A DNA stretch of 64,000 bases from an uncultured Holophagales bacterium (GTDB taxonomy: Bacteria > Acidobacteriota > Thermoanaerobaculia > Multivoradales > UBA5704). The notes under the pieces are model-generated. The model saw only the letters and a program-made list of their open reading frames with translations. It was not told where the DNA came from and did no database searches. The translations under genes and the position numbers were made by a program. Location of the stretch: assembly GCA_963842525.1 (NCBI GenBank), contig CAWJGT010000009.1:768001-832000 (forward strand), written 5' to 3'. Shown here piece after piece: positions 4,868 through 22,663 of the stretch (the first letter of the stretch is position 1; every line of letters begins with the position of its first letter).

Positions 4868-6045
4868 CTACGGACGGAGGGTGAGCGTCCTACGACGCCC
4901 GTTCGCGGCGATCAGTTCCTCCATCAACCCGGCGAGTCCCCGGAAGCCAACCTCGAGCTCGCCGAAGGTCTTTTCGAAGGGCCGCTCGACATCGATCGCC
5001 AACACCCGGAGGGCGCTGTCCGGATAGAGCTGATGAAAGGCGCGCAGGTTCCGCGGGTCGAAGTCGTTCGCCGATGCCTTGCACTCGATGGCGAGCGGCG
5101 GCCGGCCGCGCCGGGGCACGACCAGATCGACTTCGTGGCCCCGCTTGTTGCGCCAGTAGTGGATACCGGTGCGCGGCAGATGGGTGTGGAGCTCGTTGAG
5201 CACGTAATGCTCCCAGAGCAGCCCGCGATCCTCCGGGCGCAGAGTCAACCAGCCTTTGTGATAGCACACGAACCCGCTGTCGAACCCGTAGACTTTGGGC
5301 GCGGCCACGATCTCGGAGGCGGCTCCGGACTCGCTGAACGGCCGTAAGATGTGGGCCACGTGAGTGGCCTCCAGAACCGCCAGGTAGTTCGTGATGGTGG
5401 TCCGGCTGACCTCGCAGGCGCGCGAAAAGCGGGTGGCTTCGAAGATCCCGCCGCTCTGGGCGAGCAGCAGCTCGAAAAAGCGCTGGAACGAGCTTCGCCG
5501 TTCGAGGCGGAAGAGCTCCAGCACGTCTTTAGCCCAGAAGGCGTCGAGCCACTCCTGGAAGTCGGCCTCCGGCAGCTCTTCGGCGAGGAAAAACGGCGGC
5601 AACCCGCCCCGGAGCAGCCGGTGATCGAGATCGGGACGCCCGAAATCGGCGAGGTCGGCGGCGCTCAGGGGGTGAGCCAGATCTCCTCCTTCCGCCCTGC
5701 CAGGGTGTCGCGAAAGCGGGCTGAGGCGCCGAGCGTCGAGGAGCCGGTCGCCAGAACCTGCGTGGAGGAGAAGTGGTCGGCCGCGATCTTGAGCAGCTCG
5801 GAAGGGTTGCTCAGACGATGGATCTCGTCGAGGACGACCCGCCTGCCTTCGAGACGCTGCAGGAAAGCTTCCGGATCCTCCATCTCTCTGCGGGTGCGCG
5901 GTAGCTCACAGTCGAAGTATTCGACGTCCGGGAGGCTCTGGCAGAGACTGGTCTTGCCCACCCGCCGGACGCCGGTCAACCAGACGACGCTCTTGCGCTC
6001 CCAGGCGCTGAGAAGGCGCTGCTGCCAGAAAGTGCGGGCGTACAT
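4868..6045 (-). CDS. AAA_14/DUF4143-type ATPase, frameshifted near 5668
   Basis: GVRRVGKT, LDEIH and ATGSS in one frame; GGLP, PKVYGFDSG, EVDLV and IECK in the next. One C missing in a C run restores LTPLSAADL. Confidence 0.85.
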
Positions 6046-6146
6046 GCAGCTAGTCTGGCAAATAGTGGCACTCAACGCAAATTGGCTTGCGTTTGGTCCC
6101 GCTCTGTGAAGCCCGGCATCTGAACCCGCGACGCGGGCGCAATGGC

Positions 6147-7295
6147 TCAGACCTTGATGAAGATCCGCCGCCGGTACAGGACGGCCATCAAGCCCAACCA
6201 GATCGCGACGTAGGTCAGAGCCCAGGCGATCGAGGAGACGTAGTCCGGCAGCCAGGCGCCGAACGAGTGGCGATACAGCCAGGCCTGCAGGTTGACGGGC
6301 TCGCCCGTCGGCCCGGTCCAGCGGATCAGCAGGATGATCTTTGCCAGCAACGTGCTGCCGAAAAAGGCGGCGATGGCATTGGTGCCGAAGATCGAGAAGG
6401 GCCGCGCCCAGCCGTCGCGACGCTTCATGTCGACGAGGTAGTAGACCGCGGCGACCAGCAGCAGGGCCATACCGGTGGTCAACACGACGTAGGTGGAGGT
6501 CCAGAGGTTCTTGTTGATCGGAAACCACGGATGGAGGGCGAGCCCGGCGACCGTGGCAGAGCATCCCCAGAGGAGCAGGCCCCGGAGCTTCTCCCGAGGG
6601 GCTCGCTGCGACCGCAGCCAGTCGCCGGCGAACAGACCGGCCAGGGCGGAGGCGATGGCGGGCACGGTGCTCAAGATCCCTTCCGGATCTCCGGGACCTG
6701 GCGCCTTCTTCCAGGTGTGATGGCCGAGAAGGGCATGGTCGACCCAGGCGGCGAAGTTGCCCTGCGGGCTCAAGTCCCCGGTGCCCTGCCCGGGCACCGG
6801 CACCAGCACCATCGCCAGCCAGTAGCCGGCGAGCAGCACGAGCGCCAGGATCGCCCGCGACCGGGGCCCGAGGTGGAGCCAGGCAAGCGCGGCGCAGAGG
6901 TAGACGACGGCGATCCGCTGCAGGACACCGGGGATGCGGGCGGCCGACCAGTCGACCGTGTAGAACGGAAACCAGCTCAGGAACAGGCCGAGAGCGAAGA
7001 GGATGACGCTACGCCGCACGATCTGCCGGTGCAGCGGACCACGATCGCCGCCGGATCGCGCCAGGCGCCCGGCAAAGGCGTACGGGATGGCGACCCCGAC
7101 CGCGAAGAGGAAGAAGGGAAAGATGAGGTCGGTTGGCGTCCAGCCATGCCACTCGGCGTGCAGGAGCGGAGCGTAGGTCTTGTCCCAGTCCCCGGCATTG
7201 TTCACCAGGATCATGGCGGCGATGGTCGCTCCCCGGAAGACGTCGAGGGAGCCCAGGCGGTCCGGGGGCGGGTTGATGTTAATGGATCCTAGCAC
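6147..7295 (-). CDS. HGSNAT-like (DUF5009-type) transmembrane acyltransferase
   Basis: SLDVFRG, LLHAEWHGWTPTDLIFPFF, GVLQRIA, DPEG, PINKNLWT; start uncertain. Confidence 0.88.
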   Translation of the reverse strand: MLGSININPPPDRLGSLDVFRGATIAAMILVNNAGDWDKTYAPLLHAEWHGWTPTDLIFPFFLFAVGVAIPYAFAGRLARSGGDRGPLHRQIVRRSVILFALGLFLSWFPFYTVDWSAARIPGVLQRIAVVYLCAALAWLHLGPRSRAILALVLLAGYWLAMVLVPVPGQGTGDLSPQGNFAAWVDHALLGHHTWKKAPGPGDPEGILSTVPAIASALAGLFAGDWLRSQRAPREKLRGLLLWGCSATVAGLALHPWFPINKNLWTSTYVVLTTGMALLLVAAVYYLVDMKRRDGWARPFSIFGTNAIAAFFGSTLLAKIILLIRWTGPTGEPVNLQAWLYRHSFGAWLPDYVSSIAWALTYVAIWLGLMAVLYRRRIFIKV

Positions 7296-7309
7296 TCGGG
7301 CGGAGCCGT

Positions 7310-7455
7310 TCAGACCATTACGAGATGCTCTGACGTAGCGCCTGGAGCCACCGATAGTGGGATGGAGTGATCGAAGGTAACAAGCCTTCCTCCATGTCGA
7401 CATGGTCTGCATCCAGTAGCGCGAGGAGCACGTCGATGTCGAGGAGTGCTCGCAT
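7310..7455 (-). pseudogene. VapC/PIN toxin remnant with an internal deletion
   Basis: ATG overlaps the antitoxin stop. MRALLDIDVLLALLDADHVD is joined out of frame to HGGRLVTFDHSIPLSVAPGATSEHLVMV*; the middle of the PIN domain is missing. Confidence 0.8.
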
Positions 7456-7697
7456 CAGCCGAGGTCGTCTTCGCGGAGCTTGTCAATCAGCTCGTTGGAA
7501 ACCGGCCTCCCGCGGGGCGGCAATGGCTCGAAGCCATAGAAGCGCTCCGGCTCCTTGGCATCAGCGGCCCCATACCGCTGTTTCAGAGCCTCCCTGGCGA
7601 GCTCGGACAAGAAATCACCGGCACTGCGCTTTTGCCGTCGCGCCCTGTCTTTAACCGCCCGCATGACATCGTCTGCGATGTCGAAAGTCGTACGCAT
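7455..7697 (-). CDS. VapB-like ribbon-helix-helix antitoxin
   Basis: MRTTFDIADDVM...SELAREAL...VSNELIDKLRE, directly upstream of the PIN remnant. Confidence 0.85.
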   Translation of the reverse strand: MRTTFDIADDVMRAVKDRARRQKRSAGDFLSELAREALKQRYGAADAKEPERFYGFEPLPPRGRPVSNELIDKLREDDLG

Positions 7698-7840
7698 ACG
7701 TCAGATGCTAGCACAAGGCAGTCACGGCCGGCCCCCGAATAGGTCCGAATAAACGTTTGGCTCCTCCGCTGGCACCAAACAACTCGCCTGGTCTCCCACC
7801 TTCAAAGAAGGCGGGGCCTTCGGCCCATTGTCTTGATGAT

Positions 7841-7866
7841 GCCGGCGGGACGCCGGCGCTCCCAGG
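7841..7866. repeat. REP-like palindrome
   Basis: GCCGGCG-GGA-CGCCGGC hairpin followed by GCTCCCAGG in an intergenic gap; resembles RAYT-associated REPs (single copy here). Confidence 0.4.
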
Positions 7867-7908
7867 GGTACACGCCGACACCTTTGTGTTCGTTTGAACC
7901 CTGGCACC

Positions 7909-8427
7909 TTAATTCGCGCGCGCTGGGCGCCGCCGGGTTCGCCTGGCACGTCCGAGCAGTGCGCGGAGGGCGCGGACCCAGGGTGTCCACGCCCGCGCGG
8001 CTGGTGGCTGGCCGGTCGCGGCGGCGGCGCGGTTGAACGCGTCCTCAATCAGCGCGTCATGCAGCGGCCGGAACACGACCGGCCAGGTCAGGCGCGCGGG
8101 GCCGACTGTCCGCATCAGGAGCTCGTGCCGGAGGCGTGTTCCAGAATCCCCGTCCGGCTCTACCACGAGGGCGTGCGTCCCGAGAAACCCTGGGGGCCCT
8201 GTGAAGTGGAAGCGGATGAGGCGGCCCGGCTCGTACGCTTCGACCGTATAGCGGATAGGCCCATGCCCGCCGACAGCTCCGACGGCCAGCGGCCGGTCCA
8301 GGCGCATGGCCGGCCAGCGCTGAAAGGGCCAGAGCTGGTCGCCGGGGCTGGCGAGGGTATCCAGGAGCGCTCCGACCTGCGAGGGTGGTACCGGGAGGAG
8401 TCGCTCGTGTATATTGCGGACCGGCAT
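7909..8427 (-). CDS. SRPBCC/polyketide-cyclase-like protein
   Basis: AGGAGG RBS; NIHERLL, GGHGPIRYTVEAYEPGR, PLHDALIED. Confidence 0.75.
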   Translation of the reverse strand: MPVRNIHERLLPVPPSQVGALLDTLASPGDQLWPFQRWPAMRLDRPLAVGAVGGHGPIRYTVEAYEPGRLIRFHFTGPPGFLGTHALVVEPDGDSGTRLRHELLMRTVGPARLTWPVVFRPLHDALIEDAFNRAAAATGQPPAARAWTPWVRALRALLGRARRTRRRPARAN

Positions 8428-8743
8428 GGCACGCCTCCTTGAGCCCAGCGGCAGGAAGAGAGCTCGTGGCGGGCCTAACTGTATCAGCTCACCGGGCCTG
8501 GCGACGAGGAGGAGGCGAGACGCCGTTGGGAGGGGCTTCGGGACGATTCTGAAGCCCTCCAGAAGTTTTTCCAGGGCTTCGGATCGGCCCTCAAGCCTTC
8601 CGGGAAAGATCCGGACGGCTGAAAAAATTTCTGGAAGACAACTCCCTTGGCATCACCGGGCGGAATCTCCGGGGACACCCCGGCCGGCCGTGTCCATCCC
8701 GAGCATAGCGAAGATCTGGGGATGGGGAAGCTCCGAGCCCCGC

Positions 8744-8852
8744 CCAGCCGCCGTAGAGCTCGTCGTTGGCCCCCTCCCGCAGTTGGTCGTGGGTTGACGG
8801 TCAGCCGGCAGGAGTCTTCGATCCGCTCGATCTCCCAGGTGACTCTCGAGGT
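8744..8852 (-). pseudogene. Fragment of an AHSA1/SRPBCC domain (ArsR-SRPBCC type)
   Basis: TSRVTWEIERIEDSCRLTV [+1 nt] THDQLREGANDELYGGW, with no start or full context. Confidence 0.6.
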
Positions 8853-8908
8853 CCTCTCGAGGTCCACTCGCTCTTGACGCGCACGCGCCGTTTGGTCACG
8901 ACGAGGCC

Positions 8909-10744
8909 TCAGCCGGCCGAAACGCGCGCCTGCGCGGCCGGTCTGCGGCGGTCCACGTGCTCGCGGCGCGCGGCGGCGGCTTCCCGGCAACGTCTCCAGC
9001 CATCGACCAGGTCGCGCACGCTCAGCGATTCGGCCATGATCGGGTGCGGCGTCTCCCACTCTTGCATGTTCACCGGTGTCAGGTTGAGGTGGGCGTTCAT
9101 CGCCTGCGGCGACCACAGGGCCCGCACGTTGGCGCCGCCGGTCGTCCACAAGCAGGGGTCGGCGACCGTATAGACGATCAGGGTCTGGCGGCCGAGAGCG
9201 GAGGAGAGGTGGGCCAGGCCGGTGTCGGTCGAGACGACGGTGGCGGCGGTGGAGAGGATGGCGACCATGCCGGGCAGGTCTTCGTGGATCGGCTCGATAC
9301 GCGCGCGTACGTCGTCCGGCAGCCGCGCGATCTCAGGGGCGAAGGAACCCTCCCGATTCGTGTCGCAACTGAAAACGATCCGTTGCGCTTGGCGGGATTC
9401 CCGCTCCGCCGCGGCGCACTCGCGGGCGATCTCGCAGAGGAAGCGCGAGAGCAGGTCCGGAGCGAAAGCCTTGCTGCTCTTCGAGGCCGACTCGATCACG
9501 CAGTGGTAGACCGTGCCGTCGAGCTTGTAGCGGTGGAGCAGCAGCTCGCGGCGGCGCTCGACCGCTGTGCCCAGGGGAAGGCTCATGCAGACCTCGGCGG
9601 GGCGGTCGGTGAGCTTGCAGCCGAGGAGGATCTCGATCAAGCGGTGCAGCTTGGCGGGATAGGAGGTGATATGGCGGCGCGGCGGAACGACCGACTGCCA
9701 GGGCACGATGTCGCGCGAATAGCGGTCGATCAGGAGGTCGACGACCGCGAGCGCCCGTCCGCGGTCTTGCGCCGCTGCCAGAAGCTCCGTCGACACCGCC
9801 GGTGCGGAGCTGACGAGGACGACCGTCCGTTCGTTGTGCCGGCGCAGGTCCTCCGCATAGACCGCGGCCTCCGCCGGGTCCCGCGGCCCGCAGAGGCTGC
9901 GCACGGTGGCGAACGGGTGGCGTTCGGCGATCCCCGCCAGGACCGCCGCGTAAGGGCTGATGATGGTCACCGGACGACGCAGGTGCGGGTGCAGGTCGAA
10001 AAGCTTGCCAAGAGCATCGATGGCGCTCATGCCGAGCAGCGCGTCGCCGAGGGCGTGCGAGGTATAGAACAGGATGCGCTCCGCCTCCACGAACGCCGGC
10101 CGCAGCGAGGCCGCCGCGTCCACGTCGTCGCCGACGCCGGCACAGTCCATCATCAGATTGGCACGGTCGAGGAAGGCCTGGGTGAGCTCGCCGTGCGCCA
10201 GCGCAGGCCGGCGGCCACGGCGGACATCGAGGGCGGCGCACACGGCGCCGAGCTCGATCCGGCCGCGCGGCGAAAGCGTGCCGTGGGTCAGCATGCGGCG
10301 CGCGCGCAAGGCGTCTCCCAGGTCGTCGCCGCCGAGGAAAAGGCGAGCCTCGTGGTTCGACCCGTCGAGCGACAGCGCCTCCTCGAAGAGGGAGCGCGCC
10401 TTCTCGTAGTCGCCGAAGCGCGCCGTCACCTGGCCCAGGAACGACAAGGTCCAGGTGTCGCCGGGGCGTTCCTCGTGCAGGCGCTCGAGCAGGTCCCGGG
10501 ACTCATCCGGCCGGCCGCGCCAGAAGAGGATGCGGGCCAATTCCAGACGGGCGACGTGGGCGTCGTCTTCCGCGAGCCCGGGGAGCCGGGCGGCGAGCAG
10601 GCGCTCGGCACCCGCCAGATCGCCGTTGTTGACCAGCTCGTCCTGCGCCCGGCTCAGCAGAATCGACCCTGCCCGTCCGCGTTGGCGGGCGAACGCTTCG
10701 GCACGCTGCCAGGCGTCGTCGCGCACCACGTTTCCCGCGCTCAC
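8909..10744 (-). CDS. TPR-containing glycosyltransferase family 9 (heptosyltransferase-like)
   Basis: N-terminal TPR-like helices; HALGDALL; VVSTDTGLAHLSSALG. Confidence 0.8.
   Translation of the reverse strand: MSAGNVVRDDAWQRAEAFARQRGRAGSILLSRAQDELVNNGDLAGAERLLAARLPGLAEDDAHVARLELARILFWRGRPDESRDLLERLHEERPGDTWTLSFLGQVTARFGDYEKARSLFEEALSLDGSNHEARLFLGGDDLGDALRARRMLTHGTLSPRGRIELGAVCAALDVRRGRRPALAHGELTQAFLDRANLMMDCAGVGDDVDAAASLRPAFVEAERILFYTSHALGDALLGMSAIDALGKLFDLHPHLRRPVTIISPYAAVLAGIAERHPFATVRSLCGPRDPAEAAVYAEDLRRHNERTVVLVSSAPAVSTELLAAAQDRGRALAVVDLLIDRYSRDIVPWQSVVPPRRHITSYPAKLHRLIEILLGCKLTDRPAEVCMSLPLGTAVERRRELLLHRYKLDGTVYHCVIESASKSSKAFAPDLLSRFLCEIARECAAAERESRQAQRIVFSCDTNREGSFAPEIARLPDDVRARIEPIHEDLPGMVAILSTAATVVSTDTGLAHLSSALGRQTLIVYTVADPCLWTTGGANVRALWSPQAMNAHLNLTPVNMQEWETPHPIMAESLSVRDLVDGWRRCREAAAARREHVDRRRPAAQARVSAG
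10697..10743 (+). repeat. 47-bp direct repeat, copy 1 (5' end of the GT9 gene)
   Basis: TTCGGCACGCTGCCAGGCGTCGTCGCGCACcaCGTTtCCCGCGCTCA; 44/47 identical to 12549-12595. Confidence 0.9.
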
Positions 10745-10751
10745 GTTGGTC

Positions 10752-12497
10752 TCATCGGCTGAGCCCTGATTCTGAGCTCTGGCAGTCCTGACGCCAGACG
10801 GCGGGCAGGCGCTGGAGGATCTCTTCCTTCGACAAGCGACGGGGCTTCACCGCCTGGAGCATCAGCTCGCGCTGCATCAACTGATCGCCGACCAGGATGC
10901 CGTTGGCGTAGAATGTCGCTTCCCCGGCGGCCGCCTCCTCCTCGGTTCCGACGCGCAGGTTGTGCACCGGCACCGCCTTCGGGCTCGGCTGGCGGCCGAC
11001 TTCGACGAGAGCCGCCTCTCCGCTCTCTGTGAGCACGACATCGCCCTGCTTGAGCTGGCTTGCCATGACCGGCCCCCGGGAGGTGACCACCGGGTGCGCC
11101 TCGGTCAGCAGCAAGGTGTGCCCCCGGTCGTCACGGATGCGCACCAGGGGGTGTTCCTCGGAGCCCCAGGTCTTCCCTGTGACCGCGCGCACGTCCGCCT
11201 TGCCCTGTGACCGCACTTTCTCGTCGCCGTAGGCCTGGAACGTCTCGATGGCCCTCTCCGAGCCATCTGCCATGCGGACTTTCACGCCCGCGGGCAGACA
11301 GCCCTGCAGAACGTCGATCTTCGGCACGATCACCGTGTTCGACGTCGCAACCTTCGGCTTCCTGCTGGTGAACGTCGCGCCGATATGGCCGCCCGCCGTC
11401 TGCAGGAACAGTTGGAAGGTGTAGTCGAACAACATGCCGTTCGGCCTCAGGCAGTCCTTGTTCGGAAAGCTGGCGGGATTGAGATTCCAAGTCACGATAC
11501 CCTTGTCCACCTTGATGGCCGAAAGGTCGGTCGTCGCAGTCAGCATGCATCCGCCGCCGGCTGCGTCGGTCAAGGTGATGTCCAGAGACCCCGTCAGAGG
11601 GCTCGTCGGAGCCTTGGCCGGGGTGAAGTTGCCGGCGATGGGAAAGATGATGTTTGGCGGATTGCCGCTGCCCGTGCACCCATAATCGCAGTCGCTGTTG
11701 ACGCGCGGCCCATAGCAGATCTTGATGTTCCCCCGTGTCGGATCGACGCAGGCCGTGGCGGCGTTGGTGTTGCACTGCTGGGTTCCGCCTCCACCGGCGG
11801 GCTTGTAGTTCGGCGAGAGCTGGCAGGCGGCCCTCACGGGCTTCAAATCTGTAAGCAGGATGACGTAGGGCTCTACAAGGTCGTGCTTCTTCTGTTTGAT
11901 CAGGAAGAGCGCGTTGGCTTCGATGTCGCTCTCCGAAACCGGTCTCCCCGCAACCGCGACCTCCAGGTTCGTTTGCGCGCACAAGCTGCCTTCCTTGGAG
12001 CCGATATTGGTGTTTTCCTCGAGGTCGATGAGGGTCAGGATGATCCTCGTGTAATCAGGGACCTGATCGCTCGGGTAGGTCGAGAAGGCGCTGGTGTAGA
12101 AGTCTCCGTCTTCCAGCTGGCCGAACTCGGTGATGTAGTTCACGCCTTCGAGCGTAAGTCCTGCCTTGACGAGGCGCGGCTTGCCCGTTTTGCCGGTTGT
12201 GCGTGCCTTCTCCAGGAGCTTGAATAGATGGGGAGACCTCTCGGCGGAGACGCCGGCCCGGCGGAGTGTGTCGATCACGAAAGCGTACTGCCGCGGGTCG
12301 GCCAGGTTCAGCTTGTAAGGCAGACCGATCGCAACGTTCTGGCGGAGATAGCGGAGATTGGTGACCTCTTTCGCGGAAAGCTTCGTTCCTGTCGGCGCCC
12401 CTCCAGAGCTTTCGGCGCCGAGCAGGGACGAGGCGAGGAATAGCCCGAGCAGAAACATCAAGACGAACGCCGAGTGAAGGGCTTGAGGTTTTCTCAT
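10752..12497 (-). CDS. Secreted Cys-rich protein with a C-terminal Hint autoprocessing domain and tail
   Basis: Signal peptide; G|CLPAGVKVRMADG (block A), LTEAHPV (TxxH), VHNL, TFYANGILVGD (no terminal Asn), then a ~40-aa tail. Confidence 0.85.
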   Translation of the reverse strand: MRKPQALHSAFVLMFLLGLFLASSLLGAESSGGAPTGTKLSAKEVTNLRYLRQNVAIGLPYKLNLADPRQYAFVIDTLRRAGVSAERSPHLFKLLEKARTTGKTGKPRLVKAGLTLEGVNYITEFGQLEDGDFYTSAFSTYPSDQVPDYTRIILTLIDLEENTNIGSKEGSLCAQTNLEVAVAGRPVSESDIEANALFLIKQKKHDLVEPYVILLTDLKPVRAACQLSPNYKPAGGGGTQQCNTNAATACVDPTRGNIKICYGPRVNSDCDYGCTGSGNPPNIIFPIAGNFTPAKAPTSPLTGSLDITLTDAAGGGCMLTATTDLSAIKVDKGIVTWNLNPASFPNKDCLRPNGMLFDYTFQLFLQTAGGHIGATFTSRKPKVATSNTVIVPKIDVLQGCLPAGVKVRMADGSERAIETFQAYGDEKVRSQGKADVRAVTGKTWGSEEHPLVRIRDDRGHTLLLTEAHPVVTSRGPVMASQLKQGDVVLTESGEAALVEVGRQPSPKAVPVHNLRVGTEEEAAAGEATFYANGILVGDQLMQRELMLQAVKPRRLSKEEILQRLPAVWRQDCQSSESGLSR

Positions 12498-12548
12498 GGC
12501 TCCTCTCCGTGAAATGAAAACCGCAGCTCATCAACCGAGCGGCGGAGG

Positions 12549-12595
12549 TTCGGCACGCTGCCAGGCGTCGTCGCGCACTGCGTTCCCCGCGCTCA
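12549..12595 (+). repeat. 47-bp direct repeat, copy 2 (orphan GT9 start overlapping the lectin stop)
   Basis: Minus strand reads TTG-SAGNAVRDDAWQRAE-PPPLG*, against GT9 GTG-SAGNVVRDDAWQRAE. Confidence 0.9.
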
Positions 12596-12982
12596 AGCCG
12601 CGACGGTGATCCTCACCGTGAGCGATCCCTCGTTATCGGTGAAGCCGGCGCCGTAGATGCCGTTCATGTCGTCGTTGATGCTGAGGTGGAGAGGTCCGAT
12701 CAGGCCGTCCGGCACGAAGCCGATGGGGCCGACGGGGAACACCACGGGCGAGCCTCCTGCGACGACGACCTGGCCCACGAGCAGCCCTTCGACCTGCCCC
12801 TCCAGGTTGTATCCCTCCTTGGCGATGAGCCCAGCGTGGCCGTCCGGACCGACCAGGCCGTTGGCCGGGTTGGCGCTCCACTCGCCGTTCGCTGCGATCC
12901 TCACCGTAGCGGTTCCGTCCAACGTCAGCCCGGTGTCCATCCAGAGAGTGGTGGCGTCGACTGTCACGTTGAAGTCTGGCAT
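12593..12982 (-). CDS. LecA/PA-IL-like lectin
   Basis: WMDTG, ANGEW, GPDG, LLVGQV, INDD...DNEGSL (resembles the LecA Ca/sugar loop); AGGAAGG RBS. Confidence 0.75.
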   Translation of the reverse strand: MPDFNVTVDATTLWMDTGLTLDGTATVRIAANGEWSANPANGLVGPDGHAGLIAKEGYNLEGQVEGLLVGQVVVAGGSPVVFPVGPIGFVPDGLIGPLHLSINDDMNGIYGAGFTDNEGSLTVRITVAA

Positions 12983-13015
12983 GGCTCGAACCTTCCTTTC
13001 TCGCGATGTGCCGCT

Positions 13016-15277
13016 CTATTGTCTTCGTCCCGGCGGCGGCGAGCGCCGGAGAGGATCCAGGCCGCTCTTGAGCTGCGTGCCGGTTAGAGCCCTCCGGGCG
13101 ACCGGCGCCTGCTGAGCGACTGACGACACGGCCAGCGCAAAAGGCTGCCTCGAGCCCGGCGCAAGCGTGGCCGCCGTGACGGTGATCGTACATGCGCCCG
13201 CGGGCGTCTGCGCCAGGATCAGCTTTTCGAACGAATTCGCCGTGTCGGCAGGCCCATTGGCGGCCGTCTGGCCGTTCTGCATGCTGGGCACTCCTCCGTG
13301 GTAGACGGTGGTTCCGTCCGCCAGCGTCAGCGTGAGGTCGAGGTCGTTGACCAGCGCTCCCGCCAAACCGGCGTCCGGCGGGTCGTACCAGGTCAGTGTG
13401 ATTGCCAACTGCGTGGCGGCCGAGAACGTCAAGTTGGGGAAGACCACCGACTGTCCCTGTTGGGTGAACACGAAGGCTGCGCCGGGCTCGGTCAGAGAGT
13501 CGAAATACATGATCTGACCGGCGCCGAAACCATCGATCGACTGCCGCAGGTTGATTTCGCCCCAGCCCTGCATGTTGTCGGGCACGTAGTTGTAAAGCGG
13601 CGAAGTGCCGTTGACGAGCAGGGCCTTGACCAGCATCCCCGTCGCGTTGGGCAGGTTCGTCTGGGTGGCGAGGAACTCGCGGAGCAGCACCGCCGAGCCG
13701 GACACCAGCGGCGTCGAGAAGGACGTTCCGGAGGCATAGGCAAAGCCGGGCTGGTTCAGGTACGGCTGGTTGGACGGGCCCGCCCCGGTCGCCGGACAGG
13801 TCGCCGCCATGGACTGGGGACAGCGCATCGCGACCATGGCTCCGGGAGCGCAGACGTCCGGCTTGAGGCGGCCGCCCACCACCGGACCCTGCGAGCTGCT
13901 GTTGGCCATCGCGTTGATCGCCGTGGCCGTGGGATAGGTGAAGGGAGGCCCGGCCGCGCCCGTCGGAGGGGTGCCGTTGCCCGCATTGCCGACCACGAGC
14001 GAATCCTTGGAGCAGCTCAGGGTGCCGATCGAGCCGGCTCCCTGGGCGCCGTAGTTGCCGGCGGAGGTCACTACCAGCATGGTCGGGTTCGTCCCGACGA
14101 ACGTGTCGATGGCGGAGGACCCTTGCAGCGAGTACGTGTTGAGCACAGGAGCGAGAACGGGAAAGGTGCCGGTGGCGGGCACCCAACTGTTGTTGTGCAC
14201 CCGCGCATTCGCGGCGAAGGCGTTGGTCAGAGCGCGATCGATGTTCAGATAGCCTGGTTGCAGCCCGTTCGAATCGGCGTTGAAGGGCCGCATGATGGCG
14301 GTCGCCATAAAGGCTACACCGGTGAGGAGTCCGCCGGCAGAGGTCGCGCCGTTGCCCACGGCCACGTCGGTGACGAAGGTGCCGTGCGACGAGGGGTCGC
14401 CCTTATAGTTGAGGCCGGCCCAGCTTTGCGGGATGGTCGGGGCAGGATTGGTCCAGTTTGCGATGTCGCCGTTGACGCGCCCCTGGAAGTCCGCGAGAAG
14501 GGTTGCGGGATTCCCGGTGTCGAGCCCGGTGTCGTAAATGCCGAGCACCTGGCCGGTTCCGTCGAGGTTGTCGATGTTCGCCCAGGGCGGCGCGGCATTT
14601 GCGCGCACGCCGATCCTCACCGGCGCGATGTCGAGCTCTGGTTGCGGGGTCATGGCCGGCTCGACGTTCCATACGTCCGGCAGCGCCGCGAGCCCGGCCA
14701 GCGCCCTGGTTGGGACCGACACCACCAGCGCTTCCTTGCCGAGGGCGGTCGAGACGACGCGCGCGCTGCCGCCGAGCTTCACGATCTCCTCGGCGGTCGC
14801 CGCCGCTTTTTCAAACACGGTCACGACGACGTCCACCTTGCTCGTCGCGTCCGGGTTCTCGGCGCTCGCCCGCAGCGATGGATCGATCTTGTAGCCCGGA
14901 TGGAAGGCGTCGGCGAAGCGCACGCCCCGGAGCGCCCGGAGCTTCGCCAGGCTCAAATCGCCGACGAGAAGCCCGTGCCGGGCGATGGGGCCATGAATGC
15001 GTCCGCCGGCAGCCCGGATGGCGTCGTAGACCGCGCGTCCTTTCCCGGTCTCGTACTGGACGATCGCAACTCCCGGGTCGCCCTTGGCCAGCAGAGCCGG
15101 CGCCAGCTTCGGCGGCGCAGAGAGCGGATCGAAGGCGAAGTCACGCACGTAGAGCTTCGCGGCATTCGCGGCATCGGGTGAGGGCGGAGGCGGCGCGATC
15201 TGCGCGGCGAGAGCCCAGACCGGCAGGATCCATAGAGCGACGAGCGCGAAGAAGCGGCGTCGAGCGGACGATCTCAT
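13016..15277 (-). CDS. Secreted S8 subtilase, KP-43-like, with a C-terminal beta domain
   Basis: ARRRFF signal; triad DTG/HGT/GTS; SAGN oxyanion; KPDVCAPG; LVNDLDL. Confidence 0.9.
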   Translation of the reverse strand: MRSSARRRFFALVALWILPVWALAAQIAPPPPSPDAANAAKLYVRDFAFDPLSAPPKLAPALLAKGDPGVAIVQYETGKGRAVYDAIRAAGGRIHGPIARHGLLVGDLSLAKLRALRGVRFADAFHPGYKIDPSLRASAENPDATSKVDVVVTVFEKAAATAEEIVKLGGSARVVSTALGKEALVVSVPTRALAGLAALPDVWNVEPAMTPQPELDIAPVRIGVRANAAPPWANIDNLDGTGQVLGIYDTGLDTGNPATLLADFQGRVNGDIANWTNPAPTIPQSWAGLNYKGDPSSHGTFVTDVAVGNGATSAGGLLTGVAFMATAIMRPFNADSNGLQPGYLNIDRALTNAFAANARVHNNSWVPATGTFPVLAPVLNTYSLQGSSAIDTFVGTNPTMLVVTSAGNYGAQGAGSIGTLSCSKDSLVVGNAGNGTPPTGAAGPPFTYPTATAINAMANSSSQGPVVGGRLKPDVCAPGAMVAMRCPQSMAATCPATGAGPSNQPYLNQPGFAYASGTSFSTPLVSGSAVLLREFLATQTNLPNATGMLVKALLVNGTSPLYNYVPDNMQGWGEINLRQSIDGFGAGQIMYFDSLTEPGAAFVFTQQGQSVVFPNLTFSAATQLAITLTWYDPPDAGLAGALVNDLDLTLTLADGTTVYHGGVPSMQNGQTAANGPADTANSFEKLILAQTPAGACTITVTAATLAPGSRQPFALAVSSVAQQAPVARRALTGTQLKSGLDPLRRSPPPGRRQ

Positions 15278-20414: not shown

Positions 20415-22511
20415 TCAATCCTGGCCGGTGCGGAGCCACCAGTAAGAGCCCTGGCTCGGCTTGCGCCGGACGTTGGTGGCACAATGGATTTCGCCGTGAT
20501 CCATGTGGTATGCCCAAGTGTCGACGCTGGTCCCTGTAAAGCCGTAGCGCCCCAACACGCTGAGAGTGTAGGCTTCAAAGACGTCCGCATTCGCCTCGAC
20601 CGTGAAAGGTTCCGTGATGGGTATCTGAATCGGGCCCGGCGTGACGGGCCCGTAGGGTTTGGGGAAAAGACAGCGATTGGAAAGCACGAGCATGTTGACG
20701 ATATCGGCGGTCAAGGCTTCGAGCTTCATCATCGCTTGAAAGAACAGGACGGGGACCTCCTCGATCACGACTTGCGATTCCGGAAACTCGTCACGAATGC
20801 GCTGGATCACTCCCAAAAGCTTTGCCTGTGCAGATTTAGAGTCGAACTCTCCCTCTCCTTGCTGTGTGCTCGTGAGCACGGACTCATACCTCGCTCTGGG
20901 GTCCTCCGACTCCTCGAGCTCGAAATCCACTCCGAGGTTGATGAAATCCGCCCCGGGGGCTATCGGAGCCGCCAAGAAATCCACGAGCGACTGCCCGGCC
21001 TGGCGCGTTCCGTCGGCCAGTTTTATCTCCCGGTCAGTGAGAATCGTCGCGCCGGGGTGCTGGAGCAAAGTTTCGTAGATCAGGCGATAGGCGAGCCGCG
21101 GGCTCGGGACCAGCGCCAGGGCGCGGCGGTCGGGCAGCGGCAGGAAGCACACGACTTCGTCCGCGTGCCCGACTCGGAGCCAGGAGGCATCCAACGAAAA
21201 TGGCCGCTGAACCCTCTGCGCCCTGAGGAAATCTTTGAGATCCTCACGCGAGGGCTCGGAAAAATAGACTCTGCCGAGGATGTCGTCGCCGAGGGGCGGA
21301 GTAACCTCCAGATTCCCGAAGGCGAGGGTTGTGTTGGTGTTTGGCACTTGTTCGCCAACCTGGAACACGCTCATACCAAGCTTTTCTTCGGTCACGCGCC
21401 CCTGCCATCTTTCGACGGGCGAGCGGAGCGCGACCATCACTGCGCGTTCCGCGGTGGCGCGCGTATGGCCGATTTCGAAGCCGTCCTGCATGAATAGCCT
21501 TTCGGCCGCAGACTCGGTAGTGATCTGCTCACGCTGAAGCCCGCACTCTTGAAGGGCCTCCACGGTCGTTGTATACCGGTGCTGTTCATTAGGCGGAGAA
21601 GGCCCTCCTCCCGGGGAGAGCTTCAGCGCCACGTAACCGTGCTCCACCTCTTCTCCGTGATGCATCATGACCCAGGGCGCGATCCGCAAGCGGGCGTACT
21701 GCGGCTCGCCGGCGATCCCGTTGATGAGCGGTGTGAAGGTCACGACCACGCATGGGTCCGCCGCCAGGTCGCGCAGGTACTGGGTTGCTTCCGCGAAGAA
21801 CCGCACGACACCGTCGCCCTCGGCGGGGAATGCGAACTGGTGGACCCCTCGATCCAGAACGATGGCGCCGCCTTCGGCCGTAAAAAACCGAACTCTCTCG
21901 GGAGCGCTGACCGCGATGATGCCCTCTACCATGGGACGCGGTGATGCGCCGAGCACTGACTCCGTCAGTCGAAATTCGAAAGGCGCCCAAGCTTCGCGAT
22001 TCGGTTCAGGGTTCTCGTTCGCAATCAGGATCGCACCGCGCCCCTCGGGCCCGAAGGTCCACTGGTCGATCCCTTCGGAAACCAGCACGCCGTTGCGTGC
22101 GGCGTCCACGAACATGCGTGCGGCCGGCGCCGGCGGCGCCTTGAGTACAACGACGATCTCGACCTCCAGAGAGCCTTGGTTGTCCGCCAAGCCATCCCCG
22201 TGCTGCGCGTTGAGGTCGTCGTTGATTCCCAAAAACAACTGTCCGCGACCCATCGCGGAAACGTTCGCGCCCCGCCCCCCCACCCAGAAAACGGCTTCGC
22301 CGATCTTCCCCACCAAGCCGCCTTCCGGTTGGCCCGGAACCGCATAGCCGTCCGTGGCGGTGTGCTTGGAATCCCCTTCCGGGCCGTATCGGCCCGAGTC
22401 CGGATTGCACGTCCACTCTCCGCCCTTGCAGAGGACGTACACGTCGTGACCCTCGTCAACGACGACTCCCGTCGCCGTCCAACGAACGTTGGCAAGCACC
22501 TGGACTTTCAT
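20415..22511 (-). CDS. LecA-like lectin fused to a protein-arginine deiminase (PAD)
   Basis: N-terminus is paralogous to the free lectin; PAD motifs IAPW, FMQD, GNLEVTPP, WLRVGHADE, PKPYGP, GEIHCATN. Confidence 0.85.
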   Translation of the reverse strand: MKVQVLANVRWTATGVVVDEGHDVYVLCKGGEWTCNPDSGRYGPEGDSKHTATDGYAVPGQPEGGLVGKIGEAVFWVGGRGANVSAMGRGQLFLGINDDLNAQHGDGLADNQGSLEVEIVVVLKAPPAPAARMFVDAARNGVLVSEGIDQWTFGPEGRGAILIANENPEPNREAWAPFEFRLTESVLGASPRPMVEGIIAVSAPERVRFFTAEGGAIVLDRGVHQFAFPAEGDGVVRFFAEATQYLRDLAADPCVVVTFTPLINGIAGEPQYARLRIAPWVMMHHGEEVEHGYVALKLSPGGGPSPPNEQHRYTTTVEALQECGLQREQITTESAAERLFMQDGFEIGHTRATAERAVMVALRSPVERWQGRVTEEKLGMSVFQVGEQVPNTNTTLAFGNLEVTPPLGDDILGRVYFSEPSREDLKDFLRAQRVQRPFSLDASWLRVGHADEVVCFLPLPDRRALALVPSPRLAYRLIYETLLQHPGATILTDREIKLADGTRQAGQSLVDFLAAPIAPGADFINLGVDFELEESEDPRARYESVLTSTQQGEGEFDSKSAQAKLLGVIQRIRDEFPESQVVIEEVPVLFFQAMMKLEALTADIVNMLVLSNRCLFPKPYGPVTPGPIQIPITEPFTVEANADVFEAYTLSVLGRYGFTGTSVDTWAYHMDHGEIHCATNVRRKPSQGSYWWLRTGQD

Positions 22512-22663
22512 GGAAGCCCTCCCGCAGGAGCCCGGGTAACGCAGATCAGCAAGAGGCGGCGAGCGCACGGGCGAATCGGCGCCGACGCGCGCACGCGCCG
22601 CCAGCCCATCTCGGCTACATCTGGAATCTTCTAAAGATTACCGCAGAGCTGACTTCTTGTCCA

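Follow-up and report, generated by a model that had tools for sequence, protein, structure and literature searches.

The window analysed here, a 64,000-nucleotide (nt) stretch of DNA from an uncultured Holophagales bacterium of the Acidobacteriota (contig CAWJGT010000009.1, positions 768,001 to 832,000), carries on its minus strand a gene for a 581-residue protein, P0001, in which a signal peptide-like leader, an N-terminal domain (the cargo), an intein-like Hint domain and a short C-terminal tail follow one another (Table 1). A leader-bearing precursor ending in a Hint domain and a tail had been proposed in a first-pass annotation of this sequence, and this layout is borne out, the leader, the Cys-rich N-region, the Gly/Cys1 junction, the TEAH motif, the GILVGD segment and the tail all being found where they had been placed. 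Every motif is moreover kept in 13 full-length or partial homologues with 31-59% identity, and since they also recur in an alignment of 184 members, the features of the precursor exceed what chance would produce. Tentatively, we favour a reading in which the thioester formed by the Hint domain is hydrolysed and the cargo is set free.

The open reading frame (ORF) has a G+C content at third codon positions (GC3) of 0.82, similar to that of the adjoining genes. As read from the sequence, residues 1-27/28 comprise a basic N-terminal end and a hydrophobic core of 20 residues, and cleavage of the leader would probably take place near the LLG/AE boundary. Nine Cys are distributed over the 371 residues of the cargo, at positions 173, 225, 242, 250, 261, 270, 274, 317 and 349.

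Table 1. Features of the Hint gene and of its immediate surroundings, in window coordinates; residue numbers refer to the precursor.
Feature	Position	Strand	Basis or remark
Whole ORF P0001, Hint-family precursor	10752..12497	-	ATG start, 581 residues plus stop; full-length homologues exist
Shine-Dalgarno-like GGAGAGGAG	12500..12508	-	2 nt 5' of the ATG; read from the sequence
Leader, residues 1-28, Sec signal peptide-like	12414..12497	-	MRKPQ, then hydrophobic core; sequence reading
Cargo (N-domain), residues 29-399	11301..12413	-	AlphaFold2 models
Cys173	11979..11981	-	Predicted tail-cargo contact
Cys400, Cys1 of the Hint domain; scissile bond Gly399/Cys400 in VLQG/CLPAG	11298..11300	-	Cys in 184/184
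Hint domain, residues 400-538, 139 residues, mini-intein size	10884..11300	-	Family profile against PDB; Foldseek
Glu447 (Hint position 48), candidate general base	11157..11159	-	Conserved acidic or His
Block B T465-E-A-H468 within LLLTEAHPV	11094..11105	-	Alignment columns
Asn513, place of the intein block-F Asp (F:4)	10959..10961	-	Asn in 174/184; HMMER alignment
Block G-like ANGILVGD (531-538), Gly537-Asp538 replacing His-Asn	10884..10907	-	Alignment to intein
Tail or 'strap', residues 539-581, 43 residues, QLMQREL...SGLSR	10755..10883	-	Conservation; AlphaFold2 helices
Cys572	10782..10784	-	Predicted tail-cargo contact
Direct repeat, downstream copy, 47 nt (reference)	10697..10743	.	Follows immediately on the GTG start codon (10744) of the TPR-GT9 ORF, spanning its first codons
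Direct repeat, upstream copy, 47 nt	12549..12595	.	94% identical (about 44/47); holds the stop codon of the 129-residue ORF

A widespread family with invariant residues for an N-S acyl shift

The 13 relatives, mostly of 576-616 residues, were retrieved by a word-indexed search, while a scan of one genome per species yielded 28 related loci, the closest of which are from Acidobacteriota (47-58% identity) and the others from Nitrospirota, Bacteroidota, Myxococcota, Alpha-, Beta- and Gammaproteobacteria and Bacillota. Searching a family profile built from 33 members against 1.84 billion cluster representatives returned 29,174 matches at E<=1e-3, the majority of them other Hint proteins; of these, 5,753 passed E<=1e-10 and 954 passed E<=1e-30. 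Throughout the best 150 of these matches (E<=1.5e-90) the architecture is identical, with the Hint domain ahead of the tail. The alignment of 184 members, which spans several phyla at identities down to about 16%, combines 161 proteins with 23 locus ORFs, the loci L001-L005 having been removed as duplicates of entries with P-identifiers.

Database names of the members are confined to 'hypothetical protein', 'Hint domain-containing protein' and 'polymorphic toxin-type HINT domain-containing protein', and in the ESM Atlas the whole protein matched only 'hypothetical' or 'Hint domain-containing' clusters. An exact look-up for names left three locus proteins without a match, probably because their start codons differ. 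A literature search, which included the members MXAN_6253, plu1731 and STIAU_1829, found no paper on the family, though an earlier description may exist in papers on bacterial intein-like domains (BILs) or in the supplements of PMC2362128. The family is large, widespread and unnamed, has no bench study, and its members are atypical Hint proteins.

Cys400 and His468 are each invariant (184/184), and position 465 is occupied by Thr in 140 members and by Ser in 44. All residues needed for an N-S acyl shift, namely Cys1 and T/SxxH, are hence present in 184 of 184 members, in agreement with the first-pass annotation, and competence for this shift at Gly399-Cys400 appears near-certain. Immediately before Cys1 the alignment has Gly (124 of 184), Ser (31) or His (28). 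At the other end of the domain, the His-Asn pair is absent, as had likewise been noted; Gly537 (181/184) and Asp538 (180/184) are conserved instead, together with Ala531 (182/184) and, further upstream, Asn513 (174/184). The residue that follows the domain, position +1, is variable and shows no conserved nucleophile (Ala 30, Asn 29, Gly 23, Ser 20, Leu 20 and Gln 16 of 184). At Hint position 48, Glu447 in the window protein, an acidic residue or His is present in 176 of 184 members (Glu 147, His 21, Asp 8).

The missing His-Asn and block-F Asp could be taken as signs of a catalytically dead Hint domain that has become a structural module only. Retention of Cys1, T/S465 and His468 in every member across several phyla would, however, be hard to explain without chemistry at the N-terminal junction, and we consider a dead domain very improbable.

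A generic Hint domain with an active site of its own

Library models matched the window protein only below their curated cut-offs. In Pfam, PT-HINT scored best (20.5 bits against a cut-off of 27.7, E 6e-4), with Vint at 18.0 bits (cut-off 27) and the Hedgehog Hint model PF01079 at 14.6 (cut-off 29.7), and the NCBIfam intein models gave E-values of 1.6e-4 to 0.18. The domain call therefore rests on the comparison of the family profile with inteins in the PDB and on the predicted fold. Against the PDB, the profile found the PhoCDC21-1 intein as its best match (E 2.1e-11) and the Clostridium thermocellum BIL 2lwy at E 4.5e-10. An AlphaFold2 (AF2) model of the whole protein, with a predicted local distance difference test value (pLDDT) of 89.2 and a predicted template-modelling score (pTM) of 0.84, had BIL2 of Tetrahymena as its top match in Foldseek (6y75; E 2.3e-9, target-normalised TM-score, TMt, 0.74, 22% identity), while 2lwy and the gp41-1 mini-intein reached TMt 0.81 and 0.86, respectively. 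This predicted Hint fold, together with Cys1 and the block B TxxH motif in the 184 members, places the domain in the Hint superfamily. Over the 33 profile members, Pfam matches were spread across PT-HINT (16), Vint (11), Hom_end_hint (11), Hedgehog Hint (7, counted at E<=0.01), Intein_splicing (5) and Hint_2 (4 of 33), the last of which we take to be the type B BIL model. In sequence as well as in fold, the domain is a generic intein/BIL-like Hint with mini-inteins and BILs as its nearest neighbours.

The designation 'Hedgehog-type', under which the domain had first been described, is consequently not sustained: PF01079 stays below its threshold, Hedgehog chains of the PDB match the family profile at E 0.11-0.24 only, as opposed to 2e-11 to 5e-10 for the inteins and the BIL, and there is no second conserved Cys, Cys1 being the only one in the low-entropy columns of the Hint region. 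For a Hedgehog alignment of Glu447, the PDB was also searched with the single sequence P0022, which gave no match.

In the HMMER alignment, 'VyNL' of the family stands opposite block F 'VYDL' of the PhoCDC21-1 intein, and 'FYANGILV' opposite its block G 'FIANGIFV'. From this printed alignment, Asn513 is assigned to the place of Asp F:4, and Gly537-Asp538 to that of His G:6 and Asn G:7. It had been argued that loss of the terminal Asn blocks splicing. Canonical splicing is indeed excluded, but because a conserved Cys, Ser or Thr at +1 is missing; loss of the Asn alone is no bar to cleavage at the C-terminal junction, given that inteins with a terminal Asp, Gln or Glu cyclise (PMC4031507, cited here, like all literature below, from excerpts).

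We also compared the domain with the described classes as defined in PMC4031507 and PMC7765530. Assignment as a class 1 intein was rejected since the His-Asn pair, the +1 nucleophile and the block-F Asp are all lacking. For a type A BIL, the +1 nucleophile is absent as required, but Gly-Asp is found instead of His-Asn, and type B BILs possess the intein motifs other than the C-terminal one and are without block G similarity, whereas block G is intein-like here. With Asn in place of the block-F Asp, Gly-Asp at the end of the domain, a Gln at +4 and a docking strap, the active site, as far as its sequence indicates, is unlike that of the described classes, from which their own definitions set it apart.

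The PT-HINT domains of polymorphic toxins precede a C-terminal toxin domain that varies, and an immunity gene lies downstream. A pre-toxin Hint domain that releases such a toxin may come to mind here, as PT-HINT is the best Pfam match of the window protein (E 6e-4) and matches 16 of the 33 members, and as some relatives have been named polymorphic toxin-type by NCBI. However, the Hint domain is followed by just 43 residues, whose sequence is conserved rather than polymorphic; there is no conserved immunity-like gene downstream, and the Pfam match lies below its cut-off. The architecture already refutes this reading, which we regard as extremely improbable.

The cargo

Modelled alone, the cargo yields a pLDDT of 93.2 and a pTM of 0.91 (AF2) and is predicted to comprise a three-helix head (42-101) that displays an SPxLF patch (P89), a first beta-sandwich (119-228), a Cys-rich part (229-286) and a second beta-sandwich (287-397). 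Neither Pfam nor NCBIfam returned a family match for it, and the ESM Atlas gave no usable one. Foldseek searches of the PDB and BFVD retrieved generic tandem Ig/Fn3-like matches only (query-normalised TM-score, TMq, about 0.2), for example the Fn domains of C5a-peptidase, the pilin CfaB, RbmA and transglutaminase barrels. Lacking an enzyme signature, the cargo has the appearance of a protein with a structural or binding role.

Of the 169 complete members, a hydropathy rule assigns a hydrophobic leader to 110 and none to 59, and 37 of the leader-bearing ones show a lipobox-like motif. The pair Cys261/Cys270 is present in all 110 leader-bearing members versus 27 of the 59 leaderless, a pattern that fits what would be expected for disulfides in exported forms. 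On a FastTree phylogeny of 175 rows the leader label requires at least 15 changes, at least 10 of them forced by well-supported branches; the window protein falls in a well-supported group of 12 rows, of which 11 are leader-bearing and one is unclassified.

A search with a cargo profile returned 21 proteins, among which no intein-less allele was found. One of them, P0169, stops just ahead of the position of Cys1, and in P0018 (882 residues) two cargo copies stand in tandem, with the Hint domain and the tail following the second copy only. A form in which cargo and tail are joined without a Hint domain was likewise not found among these 21 matches, within the limited sensitivity of the search.

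The tail as a predicted strap between Hint domain and cargo

That a conserved tail of about 40 residues follows the Hint domain is confirmed. It is conserved about as strongly as the cargo head, with mean column entropies of 2.67 and 2.72 bits, respectively, and 2.29 bits for the Hint domain. Its median length is 42 residues among the 108 members matched by a strict motif, and it is hydrophilic, with a mean hydropathy of -0.75 in the window protein and a family median of -1.09. AF2 places three helices in the tail (539-550, 557-563 and 566-580), with block means of pLDDT between 82 and 96 over residues 531-580. Residues of note are Q542, four positions after D538, L564-P565, W568, D571 and C572; among the tail columns, Q542 is kept in 172, P565 in 146, W568 in 153 and D571 in 169 of 184 members.

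To place the tail, the window protein was cut into cargo (38-399), Hint domain (400-538) and tail (539-581), and the three pieces were co-folded as separate chains. The tail docked with a score of 0.72, compared to 0.14 in the best of three controls, with at least 84% contact agreement between runs and a partner pLDDT of at least 67. Among solved complexes 116 of 157 attain the mark used, and among mismatched pairs 2 of 215, a calibration that applies only roughly, as the alignment was our own and the task is unlike that of the calibration. In the control that scored 0.14 the cargo had been replaced, and confident placement of the tail hence depends on the cargo.

In the model, helix 1 (539-547) contacts residues 400, 441-443, 467-469, 476-478, 513-519, 522-528 and 537-538 of the Hint domain, whereas the distal motif (560-575) contacts residues 87-91, 148-149, 170-177 and 201 of the cargo. 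The distal interface is conserved on both sides, Pro89 of the cargo (169/184) being matched by Trp568 and Asp571 of the tail. An independent check on this contact is provided by the pair 173/572, which is Tyr/Tyr in 52 members, Phe/Tyr in 22, Tyr/Phe in 17 and Phe/Phe in 7, and which is Cys/Cys in the window protein solely among the 184. This suggests, on the basis of the model, a Cys173-Cys572 disulfide staple between tail and cargo. According to this prediction, the tail serves as a strap in which helix 1 covers the active-site face of the Hint domain while LPxxW..D rests on the SPxLF patch, a near-invariant part of the cargo. The docking is a model of pieces of a single chain, and the best PDB matches listed for the family are confined to profile positions 397-532, with no solved structure of cargo or tail. 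Covariation was tried for the placement of the tail as well; mutual information with average-product correction (81 rows after the gap filter) and mean-field direct coupling analysis (186 Hint-plus-tail segments) returned gap and indel artefacts or noise, and were left unused.

The proposal that the tail recognises an adduct is not upheld, since the tail is hydrophilic and is predicted to sit on its own cargo, unlike the amphipathic sterol recognition region (SRR) of Hedgehog proteins, which binds membranes and sterol (PMC7242414).

The predicted placement of the strap also bears on an alternative in which the Hint domain is excised, in the style of a type A BIL or of an Asp-ending intein. After formation of the thioester at Cys400, Asp538 would cyclise and cut the Asp538-Gln539 bond, the Hint domain would be released, and the strap would either be ligated to the cargo via its new alpha-amine or be held as a second chain by its docking, in the window protein maybe with the help of a Cys173-Cys572 disulfide. 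Such an outcome would be congruent with the presence of Asp538 (180/184) at the place of the intein Asn G:7, with the distal strap predicted on the cargo and its fall from 0.72 to 0.14 once the cargo is replaced, with the aromatic 173/572 pair that has turned into Cys/Cys only in the window protein, and with a tail conservation that matches that of the cargo head. In addition, Asp, Gln and Glu termini can cyclise, and type A BILs ligate through a free amine, as described in PMC4031507. On the other hand, the His of G:6 is Gly in 181 and the block-F Asp is Asn in 174 of 184 members, strap helix 1 is predicted to pack against the Hint domain rather than the cargo, and the cargo-profile search, for all its limited sensitivity, did not uncover a Hint-less cargo-tail homologue among its 21 matches. 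Furthermore, in three related proteins (L025, L027 and L028) only nine residues follow the Asp, and yet G-D-x-x-x-Q is kept, though cutting off nine residues would serve little purpose. Excision is possible, albeit in our view rather unlikely.

Genomic setting

On the minus strand, the Hint gene lies between an ORF of 129 residues (12593-12982) and an ORF resembling a tetratricopeptide repeat (TPR)-GT9 protein (8909-10744). An S8 subtilase is encoded upstream of the 129-residue ORF, and mannosyltransferase-like and FkbM-type methyltransferase genes are located farther away on the plus strand. The two 47-nt direct repeats (Table 1), spaced 1852 nt apart, exactly flank the Hint gene and its 5' leader region, and no flanking repeats were found around the gene in five related loci. 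The simplest reading of this arrangement would be that a once-coupled junction was duplicated when the Hint gene inserted. No tRNA is present in the window.

The suggestion that the neighbouring glycosyltransferase and methyltransferase genes supply a substrate finds no backing, as BLASTP with 14 window neighbours revealed no relative up to four genes away on either side at the 28 related loci. The neighbours of the closest relatives are mixed, including a sigma-54 activator, a Ser/Thr kinase, a GINT1_N-like and a Lon-like protein (Pfam). Because the 47-nt duplication flanks the Hint gene and no neighbours are conserved, we see no functional tie to the glycosyltransferase and methyltransferase genes; the Hint gene looks like a stand-alone inserted cassette, outside the cluster that surrounds it. 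A defence or phage origin was considered as well and set aside, PADLOC and PHROGs having given no match for the family.

Three further observations concern other ORFs of the window. The 129-residue ORF has a GC3 of 0.86 and good coding statistics, with no match in Pfam or PHROGs. An ORF of 717 residues (20415-22568, minus strand) strongly matches PF03068, protein-arginine deiminase of the eukaryote type (E 1e-43), a family that is uncommon in bacteria. DUF4143 and AAA_14, which usually form one ATPase protein, are found in the adjacent ORFs 4868-5602 and 5665-6564 (both minus strand), and this gene may be split or frameshifted in the window.

At related loci in distant phyla, a three-gene module recurs that consists, in this order, of a Hint-family protein, a protein of 750-1300 residues and one of 1000-1250 residues without a Pfam match (L016 9317-18691; L019 2735-11088; L022 6243-13139; L029, Tistrella pTM1, 6407-15116). 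The 750-1300-residue partner carries an fn3 domain in L016 and L019. No homologue of either partner is encoded in the window. In L006 (9926-15946), P0095 (1429 residues) and P0113 (1863 residues), the Hint-family protein is fused in frame, together with its tail, to the fn3-repeat partner, which at other loci has a downstream gene of its own; these fusions constitute a Rosetta-stone link to the fn3 partner for that sub-branch. In L007 (14400-19226), a metagenome-assembled genome of the Blastocatellia, an RHS-repeat/DUF6531 protein of 1608 residues is encoded after the Hint gene and its fn3 partner. Lastly, in two enterobacterial loci with nine-residue tails (L027 9311-12410 and L028 334-8207), an adenosine-deaminase-domain protein that PADLOC reports as CARF_ADA-like (E 1e-23 to 1e-24) is encoded downstream of the Hint gene, and in L028 a type III restriction-modification pair follows too; this setting may be a defence island.

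Proposed mechanism

From the conserved residues and the predicted models, we infer the chemistry and its product as follows. The starting point would be an exported precursor of cargo, intein-like Hint domain and C-terminal strap. Before cleavage, strap helix 1, with Gln542, would lie over the active-site face of the Hint domain, and LPxxW..D would be clamped on the SPxLF patch. Following export and folding, Cys400 would attack the carbonyl of Gly399 with assistance from Thr465 and His468, and a thioester would arise by N-S acyl shift, as suggested by the invariant residues. The thioester would next be resolved in a one-time event, most probably by water, with Asp538, which takes the place of the terminal Asn of an intein next to Cys1, and/or Glu447 serving as acid/base. 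Finally, the cargo, now ending at Gly399, would be severed from the Hint-strap piece, which would represent a C-terminal pro-region capable of self-cleavage and would keep the cargo held or masked up to processing.

This single-turnover hydrolytic cleavage at the N-terminal junction, with Asp538 and/or Glu447 as catalytic residues and with the Hint domain and strap as a self-cleaving clamp, is the reading we favour, tentatively and at somewhat below an even chance. It is placed first because BILs without a +1 nucleophile yield mainly cleavage products (PMC7664689, PMC4031507), because the variants with nine-residue tails keep G-D-x-x-x-Q, and because no Hint-less cargo-tail form was detected. 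Persistence of this motif with so short a tail argues that Gly-Asp and the Gln serve the reaction at the N-terminal junction, and not solely the removal of a C-extein.

Several points weigh against hydrolysis. The block-F Asp, which contributes to activation of the N-terminal junction in inteins, is Asn in 174 of 184 members, and a near-invariant Asp at the place of the cyclising Asn is a feature of Asp-ending inteins (PMC4031507). Moreover, the strongly conserved interface between cargo and strap, as well as the Cys173/Cys572 pair that is unique to the window protein among the 184, suggest that the strap stays with the cargo, and both accord better with double cleavage or ligation than with a pro-region that is thrown away. 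A disulfide between Cys173 and Cys572, if formed, would mean that cleavage at the N-terminal junction alone does not free the cargo. The docking result, too, is a model of pieces of one chain.

Alternatively, the thioester could be put to use for attachment of the N-domain to a nucleophile, as the first-pass annotation had it, by transfer in the style of Hedgehog or of the BIL-ubiquitin-like (BUBL) locus of Tetrahymena: the Gly399 thioester would be caught by a specific nucleophile, be it lipid, glycan, envelope amine or the lysine of a protein, leaving the cargo covalently anchored or conjugated, with Glu447 or Asp538 activating the nucleophile and the strap gating or recruiting. There are precedents, as the Hedgehog Hint domain ligates cholesterol by means of the general base D46/D303, for which His is also functional (PMC9163320), and as BIL2, our top Foldseek match, forms isopeptide bonds to lysines (PMC8616854). 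Hint position 48 of the family, a candidate counterpart of Hedgehog D46, carries an acidic residue or His in 176 of 184 members. The cargo, with its tandem beta-sandwiches, resembles adhesins and matrix proteins, though the matches are generic, and the lipobox-like leaders of 37 of 169 members point to an envelope location. Conversely, 59 of 169 complete members are leaderless, so that an envelope nucleophile would not be general, no conserved neighbouring gene offers itself as the source of a substrate, Hedgehog-specific sequence similarity is absent, and the hydrophilic tail, predicted on its own cargo, does not resemble the amphipathic SRR (PMC7242414). We therefore consider transfer unlikely. 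In its most far-reaching and equally doubtful form, the family would be a widespread bacterial counterpart of the Hedgehog/BUBL chemistry, in which the thioester of a Hint domain with a Gly-Asp end and an Asn/Asp-swapped active site ligates the C-terminal Gly of the beta-sandwich cargo to an envelope lipid or glycan, a partner lysine or the strap amine, the strap gates the reaction by clamping the cargo, and in sub-branches the downstream or fused fn3 protein is the acceptor.

To our knowledge, no protein modules other than Hint domains convert a peptide bond of the backbone to a thioester without the aid of cofactors, and each natural use of them that we know of so far, i.e. splicing, cholesterol ligation and E1-free conjugation of ubiquitin-like proteins, has become a biological paradigm and a tool of protein engineering. 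Establishing what this family does with its thioester, be it plain release, excision that leaves two chains, or ligation, would delineate a mechanistically new class of protein maturation in bacteria, and the family might supply a new cleavage or ligation tag. As for annotation, the Hint gene should carry neither the 'Hedgehog-type' label nor a link to its neighbours.

Comparison with known systems

Among Pfam models, that of PT-HINT (PF07591) is the nearest, from which the family differs in its short, conserved tail and in the lack of a variable toxin domain after the Hint domain. In PMC2362128, Burglin (2008) mentions an unnamed bacterial group, credited to earlier work of Dassa and Pietrokovski, with a C-terminal Hint-like domain unlike those of inteins, Hog proteins and BILs; the proteins of this group, which includes Serratia and Myxococcus among its taxa, resemble one another weakly in their N-regions, have two conserved Cys upstream and in some cases a signal peptide, and are given no function or mechanism in that paper. 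The family studied here, with its Cys261/Cys270 pair and its members in Serratia and Myxococcota, fits this description, the comparison being one of descriptions only.

With class 1 inteins that end in Asp or Gln, the family can be aligned over blocks A, B, F and G, and a terminal Asp is in principle able to cyclise (PMC4031507). The +1 Cys, Ser or Thr, the penultimate His and the block-F Asp of such inteins are however lacking, and the Hint domain is a fixed part of the protein rather than a sporadic insertion in a conserved housekeeping protein. The type A BILs, represented by 2lwy, share with the family a bacterial origin, the size of a mini-intein, Cys1, TxxH, an intein-like block G strand and the absence of a +1 nucleophile. 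Nevertheless, type A BILs end in His-Asn (PMC4031507, PMC7765530), as opposed to Gly-Asp combined with Asn at the block-F Asp, and they occur in variable regions of non-conserved proteins, whereas the Hint domain here is embedded in a fixed architecture throughout the best 150 matches.

The layout of signal peptide, cargo, Gly/Cys junction, Hint domain and helical C-terminal extension, without splicing, is reminiscent of Hedgehog proteins, and the conserved acidic or His residue at Hint position 48 may be a counterpart of their general base at position 46. The similarity to the Hog domain is nonetheless at the level of the superfamily only. A second catalytic Cys, C143/C400 of Drosophila Hh, is described in PMC9163320 as unique to the Hh Hint domain, and no second Cys is conserved in the window family. 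Likewise, the SRR of human SHH is an amphipathic region of roughly 97 residues (V366-S462) that binds membranes and sterol (PMC7242414), whereas the tail of the window protein is hydrophilic and 43 residues long. The best structural match is BIL2 of the BUBL1 locus of Tetrahymena thermophila (6y75, 6tmm). It differs in being eukaryotic, in its location between ubiquitin-like domains, in ending with Asn (the crystallised mutant being N143A) and in forming isopeptide bonds (PMC8616854), and, as is proposed for the family, it is a Hint domain by which its host produces a reactive C-terminus on the domain upstream of it.

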